DNA from: Syntrophales bacterium
GTDB taxonomy: Bacteria > Desulfobacterota > Syntrophia > Syntrophales > PHBD01
NCBI GenBank assembly: GCA_035363115.1
Contig: DAOSEM010000001.1
Location: 271,356-335,355 of the forward strand
Reading direction: 5' to 3'
Length of the DNA: 64,000 nt
The position numbers and the translations under genes are program-made. Position 1 is the first letter of the stretch. Each line of letters begins with the position of its first letter. The notes below the pieces were generated by a model. It was not told the origin of the DNA, did not search any database, and worked only from the letters and a program-made list of their open reading frames with translations. Positions 31,156 to 43,823 of the stretch are shown here, in pieces.

Positions 31156-32883
<1,728 letters not shown>

Positions 32884-32891
32884 GCGTATAT

Positions 32892-33932
32892 TCAGAGGAT
32901 CAGCATCGCATCCCCATAACTGTAAAACCGGAATCCGTCCTCCACGGCCCGGCGGTAGGCCGCCTTCATCCGTTCCGTCCCGGCGAAGGCGCAGACCAGG
33001 ATGAAGAGGGACGACCGGGGGAGGTGGAAGTTCGTCACCATGGCCCCGGTGCAGCGGAACCGGTGCCCCGGGCGGATGAACAGGTCCGTGTATCCCTCCC
33101 CGGCGGCCACCCGTCCGTTCTCGTCGGCCAGCGTCTCCAGTACCCGGGTGGAGGTCGTCCCGACGGCCACCACGCGCCGGGCATCGTTGATCAGGCGGGC
33201 CGTTTCCGAAGTCAGTTCGTAATGTTCCGCGTCCAGGCCGGCGTTTTCCAGCGGACCTTCCGGCAGCGGCTGGAAGGTCCCGTATCCCACGTGCAGGGTC
33301 AGTCGCGCCACGGGAATATTCTTTTTCTCCAGCTCCGCAAAGACCGCCGGGGTGAAGTGAAGGCCTGCCGTGGGGGCCGCCACGGAGCCGGGGGGACGGG
33401 CGTATACGGTCTGGTAGCGCTCCCGGTCATGCGCCGTTCCGGGATCGCCGGGATCCCGGCGGATGTAGGGCGGCAGGGGTGGCCGTCCGATCCTGTCCAG
33501 ATAGGCGTTGAAAGGCTCCCCGGCGTGAAACCGGACCCGCCACTTCTTGTCGGAAATGCGCTCGACGATCTCCGCGGCGGCCCCCTCCGGGAGGAGAATT
33601 CGGTCGCCCGGGCGCAGACGTCGCGCCGGCCGGAGGAGGGCCTCCCAGGTTCGTCCCTCCGGATCCGCTCCCGCCGGAAGCGGGAGAAGCAGGATCTCCA
33701 CGGCCCCCCCGGTTTCCCGCCGCCCGTTCAGCCGTGCCGGGATGACCCGCGAGTCGTTGACGACCAGGACGTCTCCTGGCTTAAGAAATTCCGGAAGGTC
33801 GGCGAAGACGCGCTCCTCCAGCCCGTCCCGATCCCGCCGGACCACCAGCAGGCGCGACCGGTCGCGCTCCGCCGCCGGCTCCTGGGCGATTCGCTCGGGG
33901 GGCAGGAAATAGTCGAAGACCGACGGATCCAT
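32892..33932 (-). CDS. queA: S-adenosylmethionine:tRNA ribosyltransferase-isomerase
   Basis: ORF 32892..34184 trimmed to MDPSVFDYFLPPERIAQEPAAERDRSRLLVV. Also VVNDSRVIPARL, HVGYGTFQP and NFHLPRSSL. Confidence 0.93.
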   Translation of the reverse strand: MDPSVFDYFLPPERIAQEPAAERDRSRLLVVRRDRDGLEERVFADLPEFLKPGDVLVVNDSRVIPARLNGRRETGGAVEILLLPLPAGADPEGRTWEALLRPARRLRPGDRILLPEGAAAEIVERISDKKWRVRFHAGEPFNAYLDRIGRPPLPPYIRRDPGDPGTAHDRERYQTVYARPPGSVAAPTAGLHFTPAVFAELEKKNIPVARLTLHVGYGTFQPLPEGPLENAGLDAEHYELTSETARLINDARRVVAVGTTSTRVLETLADENGRVAAGEGYTDLFIRPGHRFRCTGAMVTNFHLPRSSLFILVCAFAGTERMKAAYRRAVEDGFRFYSYGDAMLIL

Positions 33933-33934
33933 CC

Positions 33935-34138
33935 TTATTGCCTGCCGAGATAGACCAGGAGGAGCCCCATGACAATGGCCCCCAGGCCGAGGAACCGGAG
34001 CGTGCGTTCGGGGATTTCCAGGAGCTTCACCAGGTACTGCTTGATCTGCGCCGGAAAGGCGAAATAGGGCAGGCCCTCGACGATGAAGACCATCCCGAGG
34101 ACGCAGAGAAAGAATTCCATTCCGCTTGTCTGTTCCAT
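33935..34138 (-). CDS. DUF2065 (YjeT-like) small membrane protein
   Basis: 67 aa with two hydrophobic helices (FFLCVLGMVFIVEGLPYFAFP ... LGLGAIVMGLLLVYLG). The stop lies 2 nt before the queA start. Confidence 0.6.
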   Translation of the reverse strand: MEQTSGMEFFLCVLGMVFIVEGLPYFAFPAQIKQYLVKLLEIPERTLRFLGLGAIVMGLLLVYLGRQ

Positions 34139-34222: not shown

Positions 34223-34651
34223 TCACGGGAGAAAACCCACCTTCCGCAGGGCTCGCAGGGTGTTGCGCGACACGGGCAGGGCCGCCAGATCCTCCGGGGA
34301 CAGCCAGCGGGCGTCCGCGGCGTCGTCGGCGCCCTGCACCCGGCCGGAGACGTACTCCCCGATGACGTCCACGATGACGTAGTGGAAGCGGATCCGTCCC
34401 TCCGCATCGCGCTCGAAGAAATCGAACGTGTAGACCGGTTCACCCGCCCGGATCACGATTCCCGTCTCCTCCAGGATCTCCCGCTCCGCTCCCGCCTGGA
34501 TCGTCTCGCCCAGCTCCAGGGATCCGCCGGGGATGGCCCAGAGGCCGCGGCTGGGGTCGATGCCCCGCTCTACGAGAAGAACCCTGCCTTCATGAATGAC
34601 GATGGCCCCCACGCCGACCCGGGGCCGATCGGGGTATTCCCTTCCGCTCAC
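34223..34651 (-). CDS. NUDIX hydrolase
   Basis: ORF trimmed to the GTG at 34649-34651, which forms a GTGA overlap with the upstream stop. Nudix box GGSLELGETIQAGAEREILEETGI. Confidence 0.85.
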   Translation of the reverse strand: MSGREYPDRPRVGVGAIVIHEGRVLLVERGIDPSRGLWAIPGGSLELGETIQAGAEREILEETGIVIRAGEPVYTFDFFERDAEGRIRFHYVIVDVIGEYVSGRVQGADDAADARWLSPEDLAALPVSRNTLRALRKVGFLP

Positions 34652-35421
34652 GGCGCTGCCTCCCGGGAAAAGGTGAACTTGGCCGTCGCCCCGGAATCGG
34701 GGGAGCCCCGGAAGGACCGCTCGATAAAGGTGATCCCGCCGCCGCGGTCCGTCATGAGGACGGTCGAGGAGCGGGTCCCGTAGGTCGGGCTCGCAATGAA
34801 CAGCGGCGACAGGATCCTCTCCCACTCGAGGCCGATCCCGGTTTCGGGGAGGTCCCCGTCGGGGGCCCGCTCCATGTCCGCGAGGAGCCGAAAGAGGGCC
34901 TCCGGGTCCGGTTCGGGATTCTGCTCCAGGAGGATTCGGAACGCCTCCCGGCCCCGGCGGATCTTGGGCCAGGGCGTGTCCAGGAGGGCGTTGGACAGCC
35001 CGTGGACGCCCGGGGGAACGGGGCCCGACGGCCCCCTGCCGGAGAGGTAGAAAAGCGAATCCGCATCGCCCAGGAACAGGTTGAAGGGATTGTATTCCGG
35101 TGCGCGGGGGGCAAGACGCTCCATGGCGGCTTGCGGGGATTCCGATCCCTCCAGGTATTCCCGGACCAGCCACCCCCGGGAGGGCCTTCCCGGCCGGATG
35201 GCCGCCGGATCGCGGAAGTTCGTCAGGGCCGCCCAGCGTCCCCGACGGGTCACGCCCAGCCAGGTCCCCCCTTCCTGGAGGTCCCGGCCGCCTAGAATGT
35301 CGGGCCGCTCTTCCCAGAAGTCCGCCGCCGCCGTCGGCCGGTCGTAGAACTCATCCCGGTTGGCCGCCAGGATCAGGGGATATTCGGGATGGGCCTGCCA
35401 GGCCAGGAGGATCAGGCACAT
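34648..35421 (-). CDS. NRDE family protein (TANGO2-like, formerly DUF833)
   Basis: ORF trimmed to MCLILLAWQAHPEYPLILAANRDEFYDRPT (N-terminal Cys2 and the eponymous NRDE motif). The start lies 1 nt after the sirtuin stop. Confidence 0.8.
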   Translation of the reverse strand: MCLILLAWQAHPEYPLILAANRDEFYDRPTAAADFWEERPDILGGRDLQEGGTWLGVTRRGRWAALTNFRDPAAIRPGRPSRGWLVREYLEGSESPQAAMERLAPRAPEYNPFNLFLGDADSLFYLSGRGPSGPVPPGVHGLSNALLDTPWPKIRRGREAFRILLEQNPEPDPEALFRLLADMERAPDGDLPETGIGLEWERILSPLFIASPTYGTRSSTVLMTDRGGGITFIERSFRGSPDSGATAKFTFSREAAP

Positions 35422-35422
35422 G

Positions 35423-36205
35423 TCAGGACAGCCCGGCCCGGACACCCGCCAGGATCTTTTCCATGGCATCCCCCGCACCCGCCTGGAGGACCAGGTCCGC
35501 GTCCATGTCGTAGGGGGTGGGCGCCATGTTGATGATGACGAGTTTTGCGCCGGCCTCCTTGGCATAGGCGGGCATGTAGGCCGCGGGGTAGACCACCAGG
35601 GAGGAGCCGATGACGATGAAGAGATCGCAGCTCCGGGCGTGCTCGGTGGCGTCCCGAAGGACCCGGGGAGGCAGCATCTCGCCGAAGAAAATCACGTCGG
35701 GCTTCAGGATGCCGCGGCACTTTTCGCAAACCGGAACATCGGAACCGCCCATGGACTGCCACAGGATCGACTCCAGGGCATAGCGCTCGCTGCAATCGAG
35801 GCACTTCACCCAGGCCATGTTGCCGTGAAGCTCGTAGACCCGTTCGGGGTTGTTTCCCGCCTTCTGGTGCAGGTTGTCCACGTTTTGCGTGATGACGGCC
35901 CGCAGCCGTCCCATCCGCTCCAGCTCCGCCACGGCCAGGTGCGCCCGGTTCGGCTCGGCGGCGGTGAAGAGGCCGCTCTCCAGGAGGAACCGCCACTGCT
36001 TCCGGCGGGTCTGCGGGCTGGAGAGGAATTTGTCGATGGTGAAGTCCTCGGGATCGAACTTCGTCCAGATCCCCCCGGGGCTCCGGAAGTCGGGGATCCC
36101 GGACTCGGTGCTCGCCCCGGCGCCGGTGAAGACGACGATATTGGACGACCGGGCGATCATCCCGGCCACGGCGTCGATCTGTTTCTCCAGGTTCGTCTCC
36201 GTCAT
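35423..36205 (-). CDS. cobB: NAD-dependent protein deacylase (sirtuin, CobB/Sir2 family)
   Basis: VVFTGAGASTESGIPDFRSPGGIW, TQNVDNLH, and a zinc ribbon (CLDCS ... CEKC). Confidence 0.9.
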   Translation of the reverse strand: MTETNLEKQIDAVAGMIARSSNIVVFTGAGASTESGIPDFRSPGGIWTKFDPEDFTIDKFLSSPQTRRKQWRFLLESGLFTAAEPNRAHLAVAELERMGRLRAVITQNVDNLHQKAGNNPERVYELHGNMAWVKCLDCSERYALESILWQSMGGSDVPVCEKCRGILKPDVIFFGEMLPPRVLRDATEHARSCDLFIVIGSSLVVYPAAYMPAYAKEAGAKLVIINMAPTPYDMDADLVLQAGAGDAMEKILAGVRAGLS

Positions 36206-36401
36206 GCTCGTTTCCCACCCTGTCTGGAAGTCGTTCCTCTGTATGGAGAAAGGCCGGCGATGTCAACGGGAAAGACGCCCACGAGGCGCCGCCACCGGGC
36301 CTGCGCGGCCGCCCCGGAGCTTTTTTTGTTTGTTTTTGCCCTGTGATTTGGTTAAGGATAATCGCTCCATTCGGGATTGGGGCTCTCCGGCAGAGGAAAC
36401 C

Positions 36402-37472
36402 ATGGCGAGACGCAGGATCAAGCGGTCGGCAAAGTCCGGCCTTCCCCCCGGAACGCTTGTGCACATCGGTGAGCGCCGCGTGGAGGAGCCGCGGATCACC
36501 CTGATCCGGTACGAGGGGGAGCATTTCGAGGAGCACTCCGTCACCGCCGGCCAGGTGGTCCTCCCGCCCCGGGATCAGGGAGGGGTTGCCTGGTACCACG
36601 TGGCGGGTCTGCACGATGTGAAGATCCTGGAGCGCCTGGGAGAGGTCTTCGGTCTCCATCCCCTGATCCTGGAGGACATCCTCAACACGGAGCAGCGCCC
36701 GAAGATCGACGACGGGGACGACTACATCTTCATCGTCCTGAAAGGCTTCATCAGCGCCGAGGAGCCCGGAGGGGACCTGGTTTCCGAGCAGATCAGCATC
36801 GTCCTGGGACCCAACTGGATCCTGTCCCTGCAGGAACGGGAGGGGAACCGTTTCAGCGCGCTCCGCGACCGGATCGCCGCCTGCCAGGGAAGGATCTGCC
36901 GCCACGGTCCCGATTACCTGGCCTACGCCCTCCTGGATCAGCTGGTGGACGGCTATTTCGCCATCCTGGAGCAGATGAGGGAGCGGATCGAGGAGGTGGA
37001 GGAAGCGGTCCTCGAGCGCCCCGTTCCGGCGACGCTGCACTCCCTTCTGCACCTGAAGCGGGAGGGGATGTTCCTCCGGAAATCCGTCTGGCCCCTGCGG
37101 GAGGTGCTGAGCCGCCTGGAGCGGCTGGAGTCGCCCCTGGTCCGTCCGTCCACGGGGATCTACCTGCGGGACGTGTACGATCACGTGATCCAGATCAACG
37201 ACGCCATCGACAACGACCGGGACATGCTCTCGGGCATGCTCGACATCTACCTGTCGAGCGTCAACAACCGGATGAACGAGATCATGAAGGTGCTGGCCGT
37301 CATCGCCACCATCTTCATGCCCATGACGTTCCTGGCCGGCGTGTACGGCATGAACTTCAAGCATTTCCCCGAGATCGAGTGGGCCTGGGGCTACCCTTAT
37401 CTCTTCTGGGGGCTGATTGTGGTGATGGGCCTGTCGATGTTCGTGTATTTCAGGAAGAAAAAGTGGATGTGA
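36402..37472 (+). CDS. corA: Magnesium/cobalt transporter CorA
   Basis: ORF 35850..37472 trimmed to MARRRIKRS, with GAGGAAAC upstream. C-terminal FMPMTFLAGVYGMNF signature and two TM helices. Confidence 0.92.
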   Translation: MARRRIKRSAKSGLPPGTLVHIGERRVEEPRITLIRYEGEHFEEHSVTAGQVVLPPRDQGGVAWYHVAGLHDVKILERLGEVFGLHPLILEDILNTEQRPKIDDGDDYIFIVLKGFISAEEPGGDLVSEQISIVLGPNWILSLQEREGNRFSALRDRIAACQGRICRHGPDYLAYALLDQLVDGYFAILEQMRERIEEVEEAVLERPVPATLHSLLHLKREGMFLRKSVWPLREVLSRLERLESPLVRPSTGIYLRDVYDHVIQINDAIDNDRDMLSGMLDIYLSSVNNRMNEIMKVLAVIATIFMPMTFLAGVYGMNFKHFPEIEWAWGYPYLFWGLIVVMGLSMFVYFRKKKWM

Positions 37473-37507: not shown

Positions 37508-37993
37508 ATGGGAAGCCTGTTTGATGCCACGGATATCGTTCAGTTCGCCGTCCGGGTCGAGGAGAACGGGGCGAATTTCTACCGGTTCGCCGTCCAGCTC
37601 ATGAAGGACGACGACGCGAAGAAGATTTTCGAAAGACTGGCCGAGGAGGAGCTGAAGCACGGGAAGACCTTTTCCCAGATCTTCGCCGCCATGGAAAAGA
37701 CCCCTCCGCCGCCGGAATCGTTCGCGGGGGAATACGCGGCATACCTGAGAAGCTATGTGGACAACGCCGTCATCTTCCGGAAGGATCTTCTCGACAAGGA
37801 GATGGCCCTGGTGAAGGACACCGTCTCGGCGCTGGATTTCGGGATCCGCCGGGAGCTCGACTCCATCAACTACTACCACGAGATCAAAGAACTCCTGGGC
37901 CCCGGAAACTACGACGCGGTCGACAAAATTATCGCCGAGGAGCGGAAGCATTTCTGCATCCTGACGGACCTGAAGGCGAAGTTTTCGAAGTAA
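37508..37993 (+). CDS. Ferritin-like (rubrerythrin-family) four-helix-bundle protein
   Basis: Paired E..H-type motifs (EEELKHGKTF, EERKHFCIL) and FAVRVEENGANFY, typical of rubrerythrin/ferritin-like domains. No rubredoxin Cys motifs. Confidence 0.65.
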   Translation: MGSLFDATDIVQFAVRVEENGANFYRFAVQLMKDDDAKKIFERLAEEELKHGKTFSQIFAAMEKTPPPPESFAGEYAAYLRSYVDNAVIFRKDLLDKEMALVKDTVSALDFGIRRELDSINYYHEIKELLGPGNYDAVDKIIAEERKHFCILTDLKAKFSK

Positions 37994-38069
37994 ATCCGGC
38001 ACGGATGCCCGGGGCGGTCCGTTCCGGGCATCCGTGTGAAGGAAAAAGGAAGGGGGAGAGATCGAACGC

Positions 38070-38750
38070 ATGGCCACGATGAACCTGACGAAGGAAGGGG
38101 CCGTCTTCGTCCTTACGATGACGAACGGCGCGGAACAGAACACCATGACCCTGGACTGGACCGCCGAATTCCAGGCCGCCCTGGACGAGGTCGCGGCGGC
38201 CGAGGGAAACGCGGCCCTCCTGGTTACAAGCAACGACCCGAAGTTCTGGAGCAACGGGATCAACCTGCCCTGGCTCCTCGCCCAGCCCAAGGACTGCTTC
38301 CCGAAACTGGCGAAGCAGCTCGACGACCTGTTCGTGCGGATCGCCCTCCTGGACATGCCCACGGTGGCCTGCCTCGTGGGGCACACCTTCGCCGGGGCGG
38401 CCGTCATGTCCACCTGCTTCGACTTCCGCCTCATGCGGGAGGACCGGGGCTTTTTCTGCTTCTCCGAGGTGGACGTCCGGGTGCCCTTCACGCCCCTGAT
38501 GCACGAGATGATTTCCACCCTCGCGGATTATCCCAGCCTCCGGGAGTTGATGCTGACGGGGAAGCGGATCGCCGGGCCCGAGGCGCTGGCCATGAAGGTC
38601 GCCTCGGCGATCTACCCGGGCGACGTCCTGCCGGCGAAGGCCATGGAACTTGCGGATTTCCTGTCCAAGAAGGACCGGGCGACCTACACCTCCATCAAGC
38701 GGGGCCTCCGGAAGGGGCTCATCGCCATGGTGGAGGCGCAGAAGAAATAG
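38070..38750 (+). CDS. Enoyl-CoA hydratase/isomerase (crotonase) family protein
   Basis: FVLTMTNGAEQNTMTLDW...LLVTSNDPKFWSNGINL...GHTFAGAAVMSTCFDFRLM is a crotonase-fold oxyanion-hole region. Confidence 0.75.
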   Translation: MATMNLTKEGAVFVLTMTNGAEQNTMTLDWTAEFQAALDEVAAAEGNAALLVTSNDPKFWSNGINLPWLLAQPKDCFPKLAKQLDDLFVRIALLDMPTVACLVGHTFAGAAVMSTCFDFRLMREDRGFFCFSEVDVRVPFTPLMHEMISTLADYPSLRELMLTGKRIAGPEALAMKVASAIYPGDVLPAKAMELADFLSKKDRATYTSIKRGLRKGLIAMVEAQKK

Positions 38751-38792
38751 ACACGGCCCCGGGGAGGGCACGGATGCTGCGGCAAAGGACGG

Positions 38793-40145
38793 GTGAGCGA
38801 CATGACCGGCCGGACGAACGACGACCACGTTTTCTACCGGAGCCCCGCGAAGTTCTACCCCACGGTGGAGCGGGGCGAAGGTGTCTACCTCTGGGACACG
38901 GACGGGAAACGATACCTTGACGGCTCCGGGGGAGCCGTGGTGGCCTCCATCGGCCACGGCATCCGGGAGATCGCCGCGGCCGCGGCGTCCCAGATGGAGA
39001 AGGTCACCTTCACCCACGGCAGCCAGTTCACGAGCCGTCCCGCCGTGGAGTTGGCGGAGCGCCTGGTGCGGATGGCGCCTCCCGGACTGGAGCGGGTCTA
39101 CTACTGCTCCATCGGCTCCGAGGCGGTGGAGACGGCCGTCAAGATGGCCCGGCAGTACCAGGTGGACCGGGGGAAGCCCTCGAAATACAAGGTCATCTCC
39201 CGCTGGACGAGCTTTCACGGGAATTCCCTGGGGGCCCTGTCCCTGGGAGGCCACACGGGACGGCGGAAGTATTACCTGCCCCTGTTCCCCCACACACCCC
39301 ACATCCCGCCGGCCTACTGCTACCGATGCCCCTGGGGCCGGGAGCCCGCTTCGTGCTCCCTGGAATGCGCCGACGAGCTGGAGCGGGCCATCCTGTACGA
39401 GGGACCCGACGCCGTGTCGGCCTTCATCGCCGAGCCCGTCGTCGGGGCGACCGCGGGCTGCCTGGTGCCGCGGGACGGCTATTTCCAGAGGATCCGGGAG
39501 ATCTGCGACCGCTACGACGTGCTCCTGATCGCCGACGAGGTCATGACCGGGGTCGGCCGGACGGGCAGGAACTTCGCCCTCGATCACTGGAACACCGTCC
39601 CGGACCTGATCGTCTGCGCCAAAGGGCTCTCGGCGGGCTACCATCCCGTCAACGTGGTCATCGCGAAGGGGGAGATCCACCGGGTCATCCGGGAGGCCAC
39701 GGGGACCTTCGTCCACGGCCACACCTACAGCCAGAACCCCCTGGGATGCGCCGTCGCCCTGGCGGTCCTCGACTACATGGACGCCCACGGCCTGGTGAAC
39801 CGGTCCGCCGTCCTGGGGGCGTATCTCCTGGAGAAGCTCCAGGTCCTCCGCCGGCACCCCATGGTCGGGGACATCCGCGGGCTGGGGCTCTTTGCCGGGG
39901 TGGAGCTGGTGAAGGACCGGGAGACGAAGGAGACCTTCGCCCCGGCGCAGAAGGTCAACGCCCTCGTCGGGAGCCGCGCCTTCGCGAAGGGCCTCATCAC
40001 CTATCCCGGCGGAGGCGGCGCCGACGGCGTCCACGGCGACCACATCCTCCTGGCGCCGCCCTTCATCATCACGGAGGCCCAGATCGACAACCTGGTCGCC
40101 ACGCTCGACGAGGCGATCGGGGAGGTGGCGGCGGAGCTCGGATAG
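38793..40145 (+). CDS. Class III (omega-) aminotransferase, PLP-dependent
   Basis: GEGVYLWDTDGKRYLDGSGGAVVASIGHG, LLIADEVMTGVGRTG and CAKGLSAGYHP (PLP lysine region). The start may be the ATG at 38802. Confidence 0.88.
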   Translation: MSDMTGRTNDDHVFYRSPAKFYPTVERGEGVYLWDTDGKRYLDGSGGAVVASIGHGIREIAAAAASQMEKVTFTHGSQFTSRPAVELAERLVRMAPPGLERVYYCSIGSEAVETAVKMARQYQVDRGKPSKYKVISRWTSFHGNSLGALSLGGHTGRRKYYLPLFPHTPHIPPAYCYRCPWGREPASCSLECADELERAILYEGPDAVSAFIAEPVVGATAGCLVPRDGYFQRIREICDRYDVLLIADEVMTGVGRTGRNFALDHWNTVPDLIVCAKGLSAGYHPVNVVIAKGEIHRVIREATGTFVHGHTYSQNPLGCAVALAVLDYMDAHGLVNRSAVLGAYLLEKLQVLRRHPMVGDIRGLGLFAGVELVKDRETKETFAPAQKVNALVGSRAFAKGLITYPGGGGADGVHGDHILLAPPFIITEAQIDNLVATLDEAIGEVAAELG

Positions 40146-40161: not shown

Positions 40162-40764
40162 TCAGGCCTTTCCGGCCGACGGTCCGTCCGCGGTCCTTGC
40201 ATAGGCGATCTGCCGGCCTCGGCGGGCGTATGCGTCCGCCAGGATGTCCTCCCGGCTGCGGAAGATGTCCGTCTCCTCGATTCCCAGCCCAACCAGCATG
40301 CGCCGTTCCATCTCCGGATGCGGTTCAGCGGTTCCGTCCGCCAGGATGTGCAGCACCTCGACTCCGCGCTCCTGGAGGCGGCGCGCCACGAGGATGCCCC
40401 GGTGGCAGTCCAGCGGATCTTTCTCCGCGCACATCAGGGCGATGCGATACGCCTCGATTCCCTTCATGACGCGCTCAATCCCCTGCCGGAACGATTCATC
40501 CCGGGCCAGCCGTTCGAAGCAGACCCGTCCGTCAAGGTAATGGGACGGGTTTTCGCTCCGCGCCCCGAGCTCGCGGCCGAGGAAGGCGTACGCGACGCCC
40601 GCTTCCTGCAGTTTCCGCTGGATCTCGCTCTTGTTGAACCGGGGAACGTGGCGGCTGTAGGGCCGGGAGCGGACATCCGCCACGGCGTCGATGCGGTGCC
40701 GCTCCAGCAGGAGGAGAAATTCCTCCCAGGTGTGGTTCGAGTGGCCGACGGTGTAGACCTTCAT
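40162..40764 (-). CDS. DUF488 family protein
   Basis: MKVYTVGHSNHTWEEFLLLLERHRIDAVADVRSRPYSRHVPRFN...LMCAEKDPLDCHR is the typical DUF488 pattern (assignment from memory). Confidence 0.7.
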   Translation of the reverse strand: MKVYTVGHSNHTWEEFLLLLERHRIDAVADVRSRPYSRHVPRFNKSEIQRKLQEAGVAYAFLGRELGARSENPSHYLDGRVCFERLARDESFRQGIERVMKGIEAYRIALMCAEKDPLDCHRGILVARRLQERGVEVLHILADGTAEPHPEMERRMLVGLGIEETDIFRSREDILADAYARRGRQIAYARTADGPSAGKA

Positions 40765-40812
40765 GATCGACCGGCCCGCTGCGCCGGAGGAGCAAAGAGA
40801 TGCCGTCCCATG

Positions 40813-43041
40813 TCAGGTCCTGTCCGGCCCCCCCGGCGCCGGGACGCCCGTTCCGAAGAGCTGCTCCACCCGGGCCAGCCGCCGGGACGCCTCCCGGGTC
40901 GGCTTCCCCGCCGCGGAGACGATCTTCCGGATGGCTTCGAGCGCCCTTGCCCGCAGGCGGGCATCCGGGGGCAGCATGGACGGGATCGCGGCCAGCGCCG
41001 CTTCGCGGTCCAGGAGCAGGCTGTAGAACTGCCGCCTCACCATGCGCTTGAATTCCTCCAGGGTGACGGCGTCATTGCGGGCGCGCATCATGCGCAGGGC
41101 CTTGAAGTGGCGCTCGTCCACCCCGAACCCCGCTTCCAGCGTGCCGATGTAGATCAGGCTGCGGACGGCCGCCTCGTGCAAGCCGCCCTCGGCGATGCGG
41201 GCCTTGAAGGCGGCGATGCGCCCCCGGATGAACTCGATCCGCTCCGGCTCCACGCCGGGCCGCCGGCGCGGGCCCGCGTCGGTCGCCCGCAGTCCCACCA
41301 GCGCCTGCAGCAGGGGGGAGCCGTACGTCCACAGGAAGACCTGTTCCACGCTCCTGTCCCTCCAGTCGCGCCAGCCGTCGAGGGCGGCGACGATTCCCTC
41401 CGAGACCGCCGACTGCACCTCCTGCAGCCAGTTGTCGGGCGGCAGGGGCCGGCGCTCCCCTCGGACTTCTTCGGCGAGCCGGGCGAGAGGCTTCATCAGC
41501 GGGTTCTTGTCGGAAAAGAGCTCGAAGGGAAGCACCGCGGGATTCGTCATGTGCAGCCACGAGGCGACGGCGTCGTTGGCGAAGGTCTGCACGAAGGGCT
41601 GCAGCGTCATGCGGTACAGGCCTAGATTGATTTCGGAGACCCGGCGGGCCGTTGCGAACCGGCGGTCGTTTTCCAGGCTCGGCCGGACGACGGCCCGGAT
41701 GTCGTCCAGGGTGCGGGGCTCGAACCGCACGATCCACTCCCCGGGGACCAGGTCCGGGCTGGCGGCCTCGCCGGTCTTGGGGGTCATGACCGCCTCGAAC
41801 AGCCCGGGCGGAAGGACGTCGATCAGGTCGATGTTGGAGGCGAATTCATCGTGCTCTTTCCGGGCCACCGAGCCGGACACGAAGATGCCGAGGTGGCCGA
41901 TGCTCTCGTGGATCGCATAGACGATGGTCTGGTCGCAGGCGAAGAGGTCTTCGTCCTTCTCGTACAGGTCGACGATCCAGCCGAGGGCCTGCTGGGGGGG
42001 CGTGATGTTGTCTCCTTTCGAGCAGAAGCAGACGATGGGCGAGCGGATGTTGCGCAGGTCGACACGGATCCCGTCGCTGGTGGTGATCTCGGCGGTGGCG
42101 AGCCGGTTGCCGACGAACAGATGGTCGACGATCCACTGCATCTCCGCGGCGTTGAGGTTGACGTGGCCGCCCCAGTAGTTCTCGAACTCCAGGAAGCGGG
42201 CCGCCTCGGTATCCACCTTCGCCCAGACGTTGTAGTTCTTGGCCCACAGGGTGTTGGCCGGATTGAGGTTCTCGAAATTTTCCACCAGGTAGGCGCCGTC
42301 GAACTTGCCGTTGCCCAGGTCTCCGGTGAGGGCGGTGAGCCAGCTTCCCCCCAGCAGCCCGCCGCTGTAGCGCATGGGATTCTGCCCCTCCACGCCGGCC
42401 CAGTAGGAAAGCGGGGCGCCGGCGATGATGATCGGGCCGAACAGATCCGGTCGCAGTGCCGCCAGCATCATGACCGACCAGCCGGCCTGGCAGTTGCCGA
42501 TCACGCAGGGCCGGCCCTCCGCGTCCGGGTGCAGCTCGATCACCTTTTCCAGGAAGACCGCTTTGGCCCGGATGATGTCCTCGATGGTCTGGTCGGGCAT
42601 CGGTTCGGGCAGGAACCCGATGAAATAGCAGGGGTGTCCGGCGCGCAGGGCCACGCCGATCTCGCTGTCGGCTTTGAACCCGCCGATCCCCGGTCCGTGC
42701 CCGGCCCGCGGATCGACCACGACGAAGGGGCGCTTCAGCGGGTCGACGACGATCCCCGCGGGCGGCTTGATCCGCACCAGTCCATAGCTGGCGGGCCGCT
42801 CGAAGAACAGGCCGTTGAGCACCGGCTCGGCCTCGAAATGAAGAACGTGCGGCACAACCATCGCCTTGTGCCGGCGGTACTGGTTGCCCCGCTGCCGGAG
42901 CACGTCCCAGTACAGGATCGTGCGCTGCCAGGCATCCGCCCAGTAGTCGACGGCCTGCTGTACGAAACCGGGCACCGCCGGTGCGCCGAATTTGGATTCC
43001 TCTGGGGGTGTCACGGGCAAACCTCCTTGCTGTTCTGTCAT
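40813..43041 (-). CDS. DUF3141 protein (PHA-synthase-like alpha/beta hydrolase fold)
   Basis: ORF trimmed to the ATG at 43039-43041 (ATGA overlap with the mlaA stop). YWADAWQRTILYWDVLRQRGNQY and a nucleophile-elbow-like VIGNCQAGW with Cys. About 740 aa. Confidence 0.7.
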   Translation of the reverse strand: MTEQQGGLPVTPPEESKFGAPAVPGFVQQAVDYWADAWQRTILYWDVLRQRGNQYRRHKAMVVPHVLHFEAEPVLNGLFFERPASYGLVRIKPPAGIVVDPLKRPFVVVDPRAGHGPGIGGFKADSEIGVALRAGHPCYFIGFLPEPMPDQTIEDIIRAKAVFLEKVIELHPDAEGRPCVIGNCQAGWSVMMLAALRPDLFGPIIIAGAPLSYWAGVEGQNPMRYSGGLLGGSWLTALTGDLGNGKFDGAYLVENFENLNPANTLWAKNYNVWAKVDTEAARFLEFENYWGGHVNLNAAEMQWIVDHLFVGNRLATAEITTSDGIRVDLRNIRSPIVCFCSKGDNITPPQQALGWIVDLYEKDEDLFACDQTIVYAIHESIGHLGIFVSGSVARKEHDEFASNIDLIDVLPPGLFEAVMTPKTGEAASPDLVPGEWIVRFEPRTLDDIRAVVRPSLENDRRFATARRVSEINLGLYRMTLQPFVQTFANDAVASWLHMTNPAVLPFELFSDKNPLMKPLARLAEEVRGERRPLPPDNWLQEVQSAVSEGIVAALDGWRDWRDRSVEQVFLWTYGSPLLQALVGLRATDAGPRRRPGVEPERIEFIRGRIAAFKARIAEGGLHEAAVRSLIYIGTLEAGFGVDERHFKALRMMRARNDAVTLEEFKRMVRRQFYSLLLDREAALAAIPSMLPPDARLRARALEAIRKIVSAAGKPTREASRRLARVEQLFGTGVPAPGGPDRT

Positions 43042-43823
43042 TTCATGATCAGCAACTCGTCCCATTTGCAATAGAGAAAACGAAGGAAATCGTACTCGAA
43101 GGGATAGCCGCTCTCATAGTACCGGAACGGCACCCGGTGTCTTGTGTCGACGGCTTCCAGCGCGGATACGCCCGCGAGGATGACCTCTCCGTGGTTGACG
43201 TTCCCGAGGGGGTCGATGGCGTAGAGCGCGGCGTAACGGATGCCCGCGTCCACTGCGAGCCCTCCTGTTCCGCGCACCGTGCTGGGGCCCAGCACGGGCA
43301 GGATCAGGTAGGGACCGGCATTGACGTTCCAGCGGCCCAGGGTCTGGCCGAAGTCGCCGTGCTGCCGTTTCAGCCCCATCGGCGTGGCCGCATCGAACAG
43401 GCCGCCGACGCCGAGGGTGCTGTTGGCCAGGAAGCGGCCGAGCGTGATGACGAACTTTTTCCCCTGCAACTGGAAAACGCTGTTGTAGAGTGTCCGAAGT
43501 TCTCCTATATTACTGAAAACGTTGGAGATACCCTTCTGGGCAAGGGTGGGGACGATGAACTCGTAGCCCTTTACGACGGGAATCACGACGTATCGGTCGA
43601 GGCGGTAGTTGAAGTTGTACATGCCGCGGTTGAAGCGCTCCCAGGGATCCTTGATGACGGCGATGCCCTCGTCGTCGCTGAATTCCTCGATCGAGTGCAT
43701 GGCCGGAACCTCGGGAAGCACCCCGGGAGCCGTCGTAGCGGCACATCCGGCCATGACGGAAACCAGGCACAGGACGATCAGGATCGGGCGGGCAAGACGA
43801 AAGAGAGACGGCATGCGGTACAC
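43038..43823 (-). CDS. mlaA: MlaA/VacJ family outer-membrane lipoprotein
   Basis: Lipobox VMAGC. DPWERFNRGMYNFNYRLDRYVVIPVVKGY...GDFGQTLGRWNVNAGPYLILPVLGPSTVRG is the VacJ signature. Confidence 0.88.
   Translation of the reverse strand: MYRMPSLFRLARPILIVLCLVSVMAGCAATTAPGVLPEVPAMHSIEEFSDDEGIAVIKDPWERFNRGMYNFNYRLDRYVVIPVVKGYEFIVPTLAQKGISNVFSNIGELRTLYNSVFQLQGKKFVITLGRFLANSTLGVGGLFDAATPMGLKRQHGDFGQTLGRWNVNAGPYLILPVLGPSTVRGTGGLAVDAGIRYAALYAIDPLGNVNHGEVILAGVSALEAVDTRHRVPFRYYESGYPFEYDFLRFLYCKWDELLIMK

Follow-up and report, generated by a model that had tools for sequence, protein, structure and literature searches.

Within the 64-kb window analyzed here (the whole stretch of Syntrophales DNA, 64,000 nucleotides), three genes on the minus strand follow one another almost without spacing (Table 1), and encode a Sir2-family sirtuin, an NRDE/TANGO2-family protein and a NUDIX hydrolase. 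We found that this unit is conserved among relatives of the source organism, and we tentatively read it, at a little under an even chance, as a coupled operon for protein deacylation and disposal of the nucleotide by-product, in which the NRDE protein would be an acyl hydrolase with O-acyl-ADP-ribose as a possible substrate. This reading relies on guilt by association inside a single order; for the link between the NRDE and NUDIX genes there are also weaker, independent parallels. A preliminary description of this DNA had pointed to a 1-nt gap between the Sir2 and NRDE genes and a GTGA stop/start overlap between the NRDE and NUDIX genes, and both are present in the minus-strand sequence. A 4-nt stop/start overlap is frequent in operons and without significance by itself; the packing is significant here because the gene order is conserved in relatives.

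Conservation of the gene unit among relatives

On contigs whose NRDE proteins are 90%, 79% and 58% identical to that of the window, the order Sir2-NRDE-NUDIX is kept. We compared two samples of NRDE loci, which together hold the roughly 150 NRDEs nearest to the window NRDE; the family as a whole comprises about 8000 clusters at 50% identity (at E≤1e-3 it is matched by 8154 representatives, one for each cluster). The first sample used one genome per GTDB species and consisted of the best 80 NRDE loci, with NRDEs 47-59% identical to the window protein. After clustering of the neighboring genes, 13 of 79 loci had Sir2 upstream of NRDE, at a distance of one or two genes, and likewise 13 of 79 had an orthologous NUDIX gene downstream of NRDE, all of these loci being labelled Syntrophales, Smithella, Syntrophaceae or "delta". 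The second sample, 80 metagenome loci from a scan seeded by distant NRDEs (a 7-sequence alignment), mostly re-sampled the same lineages and added 8 Sir2-linked loci of the same kind, so that over both samples Sir2 stands beside NRDE in 21 of about 150 loci. In a neighbor-joining tree, the Sir2-linked NRDEs fall into two adjacent Syntrophales clades, and the association most likely arose once.

A probable single origin is also what would be seen under inherited synteny, in which the NRDE protein has an unrelated role (for example, heme trafficking of the HtpA type) and its gene was inserted once, in an ancestor, into an already linked Sir2-NUDIX(-HDAC) pair or trio. We think this quite unlikely. 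The gene order stays the same in relatives even where their NRDEs are no more than 48-60% identical and the genes around the unit vary; across the loci, these flanks include corA with rubrerythrin, diadenylate cyclase, chorismate synthase with prephenate dehydrogenase, a large membrane protein, mnmE, a restriction-modification pair and patatin. Persistence of the unit between differing flanks is the pattern expected if selection holds it together. If the NRDE gene was inserted, it has moreover been kept with overlapping start and stop codons at about 50% NRDE identity and between rearranged flanks.

The common form in Syntrophales is a unit of four genes, Sir2-NRDE-NUDIX-HDAC. A gene for an HDAC-like Zn amidohydrolase of about 250 aa (PF00850) comes after NUDIX in most Syntrophales loci, and the sequence of this enzyme still shows the HH dyad, the Asp/His metal ligands and the tyrosine of EGGY; at two loci, a GNAT acetyltransferase gene lies between Sir2 and NRDE. 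A second, HDAC-like type of lysine deacylase, together with some GNATs, fits a theme of acyl transfer and NAD, and because relatives carry these enzymes in the unit, the module would be one that manages protein acylation. The HDAC gene is missing from the window, from its nearest relatives and from the locus L175, and the window has DUF2065 and queA at the position where most relatives have the HDAC-like gene. No homologs of HDAC, GNAT or thiolase were found anywhere in the 64-kb window.

Within the unit, the NRDE-to-NUDIX junction is the tightest, the two genes overlapping or standing no more than 1 nt apart in 16 of the 21 loci. Insertions are tolerated at the Sir2-NRDE junction and rarely at the NRDE-NUDIX junction, and the distance from Sir2 to NRDE is 1 nt in close relatives but varies within the clade between -10 and +377 nt. 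Seen from the Sir2 side, NRDE adjoins Sir2 in 5 of 6 orthologous Sir2 loci. Individual loci carry further genes: two from Syntrophaceae (L032 and L035) have a 166-aa open reading frame (ORF) that seems to encode a signal peptide and matches no Pfam family, located either in the Sir2-NRDE interval or immediately before NRDE; L014 has a DUF559 endonuclease-like gene inserted at the Sir2-NRDE junction; and L026 has a cupin gene between NRDE and NUDIX.

Neighborhood enrichment around NRDE genes

For the enrichment analysis, genes at most three positions from NRDE were compared with genes farther away, so that the same loci served as their own control. Sir2 accounted for 21 of 748 near genes and 0 of 708 far genes, and NUDIX for 32 of 748 and 2 of 708; HDAC was counted 12 times near and once far, thiolase 23 and 5 times, and 4HBT thioesterase 6 and 8 times. 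These counts ignore shared ancestry, for which we made a rough correction by single-linkage grouping of the NRDEs at 60% identity. Among the resulting 70 groups, Sir2 lies near NRDE in 2, NUDIX in 8 (with distant NUDIX in 1) and thiolase in 13 (distant in 3). In other words, the Sir2-NRDE link is real but lineage-restricted, and the NUDIX-NRDE link recurs outside Syntrophales. The genomic linkage on which the preliminary description had built shows as strong over-representation of both partners near NRDE, but for Sir2 it was found, among the sampled loci, in the Syntrophales lineage only, and restriction to this lineage was what that description had named as an argument against its reading.

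The recurring NUDIX genes are of different kinds. In Cytophagales, the gene for a NudE-like "ADP compounds hydrolase" stands upstream of NRDE, at a distance of two genes and on the other strand; in a metagenome-assembled genome (MAG) of Steroidobacteraceae, the immediate upstream neighbor of NRDE encodes a bona fide NudC NAD+ diphosphatase. These two and the window type are not mutual orthologs, and, judged by sequence, all three appear to belong to groups that handle ADP-ribose or NAD. The presence of this enrichment in other lineages is a further point against inherited synteny. IDI-like NUDIX genes three genes downstream of NRDE (L117, L142 and L163) were considered as another independent link and rejected as too weak, with partial alignments at 25-35% identity to the window NUDIX.

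Thiolase genes stand divergently beside NRDE in 14 species loci of Desulfobacterales and in 9 metagenome loci, a neighborhood that points to acyl-CoA metabolism. The enrichment of thiolase near NRDE speaks for another explanation, in which the NRDE protein does not act on ADP-ribose and is instead a parallel enzyme: an acyl-amide hydrolase (a third acyl-lysine or N-acyl deacylase), an acyl-CoA thioesterase or an N-acyltransferase, co-expressed with its neighbors under acyl-CoA ("carbon") stress, with the NUDIX enzyme serving the sirtuin only or hydrolyzing CoA or NAD species. The presence of HDAC and GNAT genes within the unit would fit this explanation as well, yet the NRDE gene is coupled most tightly to NUDIX rather than to Sir2 or HDAC, and the unrelated NUDIX genes near NRDE elsewhere are of ADP-ribose/NAD types and not CoA diphosphatases. 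Neighbors of the 4HBT/PaaI thioesterase type, suggestive in L037, L032 and L035, were dropped as evidence, given that 4HBT genes are not enriched near NRDE, which itself counts against a parallel enzyme. On balance, we consider a parallel enzyme, the chief alternative to our reading, a possible but somewhat unlikely account of the NRDE protein.

Several NRDE neighborhoods have further recurrent features. In Desulfobacterales (L041, L042, L046, L048, L064, L067, L069, L081, L083, L086 and others), the NRDE and acetyl-CoA acetyltransferase genes diverge at a distance of 80-240 bp; NRDE loci of this group also have an ORF of about 51 aa and an AI-2E-type permease gene upstream, and RarA and Der genes downstream on the opposite strand. 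In Betaproteobacteria, specifically Accumulibacter and relatives (L019, L027, L038, L040, L060, L061 and L062), NRDE is immediately preceded by a same-strand gene for a YgfZ-like folate-binding protein, in several loci at a gap of 13-26 nt. The neighbors of NRDE in Cytophagales also include genes for RNase HII and an alpha/beta hydrolase.

The sirtuin

The Sir2 protein matches PF02146 at 2.7e-53 over the full model (positions 1-180 of 180), as well as NCBIfam models of CobB-type deacylases (NF001753 at 276 bits, against a cutoff of 243 bits). The canonical motifs attributed to it earlier are all in place: the Rossmann NAD-binding motifs GAGxS (GAGAS at 28) and TQNVD (at 106), and a Zn ribbon (CLDC at 135 and CEKC at 160). 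The catalytic His127, within ELHGN, and the four Cys of the Zn ribbon align with Archaeoglobus fulgidus Sir2-Af2 (1ma3, E 2e-67), which is, with Thermotoga maritima Sir2Tm (1yc5), the nearest solved relative. By these sequence features, the window sirtuin is an ordinary protein deacylase, neither of the defense type nor ADP-ribosylating, and would share its deacylase subfamily with Sir2-Af2, Sir2Tm and SYN_00042 of Syntrophus aciditrophicus. The latter species belongs to the same order-level lineage as the window and shows abundant acyl-lysine modification, and its sirtuins, like that of the window, lack the YxxR motif (PMC8942843). In Syntrophales, fatty and aromatic acid metabolism runs via reactive acyl-CoA intermediates that heavily acylate lysines, giving many kinds of acyl-lysine; the sirtuins are active, and one from this order strips glutaryl, butyryl and succinyl groups from lysine (PMC8942843).

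Sir2 and NUDIX domains are also known from defense systems, and the window NUDIX protein matches a generic PADLOC candidate model (PDC-S07) at 1e-14. An NAD-depleting anti-phage system, with Sir2 as the effector and NUDIX as its partner, is nevertheless effectively refuted. The sirtuin has every catalytic motif of a full canonical deacylase and is fused to neither a sensor nor an effector; its PADLOC matches are insignificant (E above 1e-4), and the NRDE protein has none. The neighbors are housekeeping genes (queA, tgt, yajC, secDF and corA), GC content is uniform across the locus, and a scan of viral contigs found no NRDE relatives. We therefore ruled out a Sir2-based defense system on the grounds of PADLOC, housekeeping context and uniform GC content.

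The NRDE/TANGO2-family protein

The NRDE protein matches PF05742, the family of human TANGO2 and bacterial HtpA, at 2.5e-74, with positions 1-255 of its 257 residues covered. It aligns with human TANGO2 (8sv7/9bwa) at E 4e-42, residues C2, N21-F25, R28, R82, N144 and K153 of the window protein corresponding to human C2, N25-F29, R32, R88, N157 and K166, and Asp23 to human D27. The two proteins thus share Cys2, the NRDE motif (N21-R22-D23-E24 in the window), the Asn/Lys network and 2 of the 3 phosphate-site residues; the third, human K56, has no counterpart in the window protein. The active-site residues and Arg28/Arg82 are invariant among 24 homologs, Cys2 included, in agreement with the conserved N-terminal Cys described earlier. 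In the corresponding network of N-terminal nucleophile (Ntn) enzymes, an Asp steadies the alpha-amine, an Asn provides the oxyanion hole and a basic residue completes the set (PMC13044924); in the window protein these roles would fall to Asp23, Asn144 and Lys153.

Structure prediction, which had been suggested for this protein, gave an AlphaFold2 (AF2) model with a pLDDT of 87.5, on which Foldseek superposes human TANGO2 at a TM-score of 0.9. The next fold matches are acyl-CoA:isopenicillin N acyltransferase, NAAA, bile-salt hydrolase, penicillin V acylase and acid ceramidase. On the strength of this model, we place the NRDE protein in the Cys-Ntn hydrolase superfamily, as an alpha-beta-beta-alpha sandwich and a predicted acyl hydrolase. 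Methionine aminopeptidase prefers small second residues and, since Cys is residue 2, removal of Met1 would expose Cys2. With the known Cys-Ntn amidases and acyltransferases, the NRDE protein would share the fold, the N-terminal Cys nucleophile and acyl substrates (PMC13044924), at an identity of only 10-17%. It would differ from them in that its nucleophile is freed by Met removal rather than by autoproteolysis, and in having a basic phosphate site near the pocket. That the nearest folds are acyl-amide hydrolases and an acyl-CoA-dependent N-acyltransferase, and that typical Ntn chemistry fits, are points in favor of a parallel enzyme.

The function of the TANGO2 family is debated between heme trafficking, acyl-CoA binding and a Cys-Ntn hydrolase (PMC12782551, PMC11867700, PMC13044924), and the statement in the preliminary description that it has no settled biochemical function agrees with this disputed literature. 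On the basis of crystal structures, TANGO2 has been proposed to be a Cys-Ntn hydrolase with a phosphate site formed by R32/K56/R88, at which the ADP diphosphate of docked acyl-CoA sits (PMC13044924, PMC12359130). Human TANGO2 binds C16/C18 acyl-CoA via the acyl chain, for which the NRDE motif and pocket are required, as a parallel enzyme acting on acyl-CoA might; in lysophospholipid acyltransferase (LPLAT) assays, however, it was without acyltransferase activity (PMC11867700). Hydrolytic or acyl-transfer activity has been shown for no member of the family (PMC13044924, PMC12782551). For inherited synteny, the relevant report is that Shewanella HtpA aids cytochrome c maturation, with heme trafficking proposed as its role (PMC10470608); against it, the heme role of TANGO2 homologs is contested (PMC12782551), and heme binding to the TANGO2 crystal form was non-specific (PMC13044924).

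The NUDIX protein

The NUDIX protein matches PF00293 at 3.2e-21, and its Nudix box, GSLELGETIQAGAEREILEETGI (residues 43-65, at 34457-34525), conforms to the pattern GX5EX7REUXEEXGU. The Nudix box is shared with yeast Ysa1, NUDT5 and NadM-Nudix, and the nearest characterized relatives are the ADP-ribose pyrophosphatase domains of NadM-Nudix proteins, at an NCBIfam E of 4e-18 that is far below the model cutoffs and at E~1e-12 to PDB 2qjt/2qjo, again below family cutoffs. The window protein is a lone domain of 142 aa, whereas NadM-Nudix carries the NadM part too. Its AF2 model (pLDDT 92.5) gives Nudix-fold matches, among which Foldseek ranks MutT, NudJ, NudI, Ap4A hydrolases and NrtR equally and does not discriminate between substrates. 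Source annotations vary between ADP-ribose pyrophosphatase and 8-oxo-dGTPase, and a protein 100% identical over the 142 aa is recorded for a Syntrophales MAG. O-acetyl-ADP-ribose is metabolized by Nudix enzymes, for example yeast Ysa1 (PMC4004948).

A proposed pathway for deacylation and by-product disposal

In the pathway that we propose, the sirtuin would use NAD+ to deacylate lysines, yielding nicotinamide and 2'/3'-O-acyl-ADP-ribose, a step that is well supported by homology. The NRDE protein, with Cys2 as the free N-terminal nucleophile after loss of Met1, would then hydrolyze an acyl group borne by an ADP-containing molecule. Its likeliest substrate would be the ester O-acyl-ADP-ribose, or O-acyl-ribose-5-phosphate once the NUDIX enzyme has cut, and the Arg28/Arg82 site would hold the diphosphate or phosphate. 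Finally, the NUDIX enzyme, to go by its weak subfamily similarity, would cleave ADP-ribose to AMP and ribose-5-phosphate. We propose the second and third steps because of the tight NRDE-NUDIX coupling, the recurrence of ADP-ribose/NAD NUDIX genes near NRDE, the Ntn fold and the phosphate site. The NRDE protein would be an accessory part of this module and not an indispensable one.

Several observations weigh against this reading. Among the sampled loci, Sir2 adjoins NRDE in a single order-level lineage only, probably as the result of one ancestral event, and elsewhere NRDE has other neighbors, among them thiolase, YgfZ and RNase HII. In several loci the unit consists of Sir2-NRDE or Sir2-NRDE-HDAC alone, and NUDIX is missing at L012, L039, L116, L122, L137, L146 and L151. 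In the cultured Syntrophus gentianae (GCA_900109885.1, L172 5239-8355), orthologs of Sir2 (67% identity) and NUDIX (64%) occur with HDAC around an opposite-strand LuxR/NarL-type response regulator gene at the NRDE position; this locus has no NRDE gene, and tblastn found no remnant of one there. Comparison of Sir2-linked NRDEs with other NRDEs found no residues specific to the former, which makes it probable that the Sir2-linked proteins share the chemistry general to the family. The substrate of the NUDIX protein is not assignable by sequence or fold, and both co-transcription of the three genes and a shared promoter are read from the gene packing. Ntn hydrolases as a rule cleave amides and not esters, and we know of no biochemical data on bacterial NRDE proteins and ADP-ribose esters.

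Some of these points are equally points for the alternatives. A parallel enzyme is in keeping with the Sir2-NRDE-HDAC loci that lack NUDIX, with the lack of clade-specific residues and with an NRDE gene that is dispensable in S. gentianae where Sir2 and HDAC stay; inherited synteny is in keeping with the persistence of Sir2, NUDIX and HDAC in that species and with the diversity of NRDE neighbors outside Syntrophales. The earlier suggestion that the NRDE protein acts in the same NAD/ADP-ribose or acyl-transfer pathway as its neighbors consequently holds in part: the conserved unit, its HDAC and GNAT additions, the recurring NUDIX link and the fold argue for it, but the restriction of the Sir2 link to one order, the NRDE-less S. 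gentianae and the varied neighbors elsewhere argue against it. S. gentianae provides a natural NRDE-minus comparison strain. Immediately upstream of its Sir2, NUDIX and HDAC genes lies a benzoyl-CoA-reductase-like BcrAD/HGD-D cluster.

A broader claim, which we regard as unlikely, would extend deacylation and by-product disposal to the whole NRDE/TANGO2 family, whose members would be hydrolases of acyl groups on ADP-containing carriers and, for the longer-chain O-acyl-ADP-ribose that sirtuins produce, would be the deacylase still missing. If this were true, human TANGO2 deficiency would be a failure to clear sirtuin-derived or acyl-CoA-like acyl-nucleotides in mitochondria under fasting stress.

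Relation to known systems

Sirtuin genes are likewise linked to enzymes for ADP-ribose products in the SirTM/Zn-macro operons and in the pairing of CobB with O-acetyl-ADP-ribose deacetylases of the YmdB type. Macrodomains, too, metabolize O-acetyl-ADP-ribose, and by analogy the role proposed for the NRDE protein would parallel their hydrolysis of this compound. The window sirtuin differs from SirTM, a class-M ADP-ribosyltransferase, in being a canonical deacylase, and its partner has the predicted Ntn fold where the partners of SirTM and CobB have the macro fold. No macrodomain was present in the gene lists of the window and of the relatives' clusters.

The three families and operons of a sirtuin with a partner are known; new are the Ntn-type partner and the four-gene deacylation unit. 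In the literature that we searched, no link of TANGO2/NRDE to sirtuins or Nudix enzymes, including an operon link, is described, and the paper on the Syntrophus acylome is silent on both NRDE and Nudix (PMC8942843). Since TANGO2 is tied to disease in humans (metabolic crises, rhabdomyolysis and arrhythmia), the operon context is of use in narrowing the candidate substrates to O-acyl-ADP-ribose, O-acyl-ribose-5-phosphate, acyl-lysine and acyl-CoA, so that the disputed function of a disease-gene family becomes a matter of a few enzyme assays. For syntrophs, whose proteomes are unusually heavily acylated (PMC8942843), the unit suggests a dedicated module for deacylation and by-product disposal. 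If the association is inherited synteny only, what is left is an ordinary operon of three known families.

Layout and surroundings of the cluster

The coordinates of the cluster and of its surroundings are given in Table 1. A gene caller written for this analysis, which is self-trained, seeded on amino-acid composition and takes the best-scoring starts, chose the same three genes and starts; it reproduced public gene calls, and the protein lengths match the public calls on relatives.

Table 1. Positions in the window of the Sir2-NRDE-NUDIX cluster, its junctions and its surroundings
Feature	Position	Strand	Remarks
Sir2-family NAD-dependent protein deacylase	36205..35423	-	260 aa; stop TGA 35425-35423
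Codon of catalytic His127 (Sir2)	35825-35827	-	
NRDE/TANGO2-family protein	35421..34648	-	257 aa; ATG start; N-terminus MCLILLAW
Codon of Cys2 (NRDE)	35416-35418	-	
NRDE motif, residues 21-24	35350-35361	-	
NUDIX hydrolase, minimal single domain	34651..34223	-	142 aa; GTG start
Sir2 stop/NRDE start junction, TGAcATG	35419..35425	-	1-nt gap (base 35422); read from sequence
NRDE stop/NUDIX start overlap, GTGA 34651-34648, with upstream GGGAGG	34648..34664	-	TGA (34650-34648) overlaps GTG (34651-34649); GGGAGG at 34664-34659; read from sequence
Sir2-corA divergent intergenic region	36206..36401	.	presumed operon promoter; from ORF and gene calls
corA	36402-37472	+	start ~36402; divergent from Sir2
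Rubrerythrin, enoyl-CoA hydratase, class-III aminotransferase	37508-40142	+	block syntenic in relatives L001-L003
DUF488 and large DUF3141 protein	40165-43071	-	beyond the upstream block
DUF2065	34138..33935	-	Pfam PF09838
queA	33932..32892	-	Pfam PF02547
queA-tgt gap	32344-32891		unusually long, ~550 bp; no Rfam match

At the junction between Sir2 and NRDE no obvious Shine-Dalgarno sequence was seen, and its arrangement is compatible with termination-reinitiation. The NUDIX start is preceded at 7 nt by the Shine-Dalgarno-like GGGAGG. A scan of the cluster region gave no consensus match to a sigma-70-type promoter. It contains two terminator-like hairpins, both weak and at a frequency not above that in shuffled sequence, of which one sits in the 3' end of the NUDIX gene and neither in the spacer between NUDIX and DUF2065. 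DUF2065 follows the NUDIX stop on the same strand after an 84-nt gap, and it and queA are possibly co-transcribed with the cluster. The window DNA has a GC content of 64%, its composition profile gives no indication of horizontal acquisition, and an Rfam scan of the whole window returned zero matches.

Downstream on the same strand, DUF2065 and queA are followed by tgt, yajC, secD and secF. The equivalent of the queA-tgt gap in the relative L001 (8670-8936) holds an 88-aa ORF for which no Pfam family was called. On the other side, corA and the block behind it diverge from the cluster, and this gene for a Mg/metal transporter is found divergently upstream in many Syntrophales loci (L001-L006, L010, L169-171, L175 and L177). 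Shewanella HtpA (SO0126) is likewise reported to be encoded beside a metal transporter gene, at a strictly conserved distance (PMC10470608), and this common neighbor of HtpA and the Syntrophales cluster may be a coincidence.

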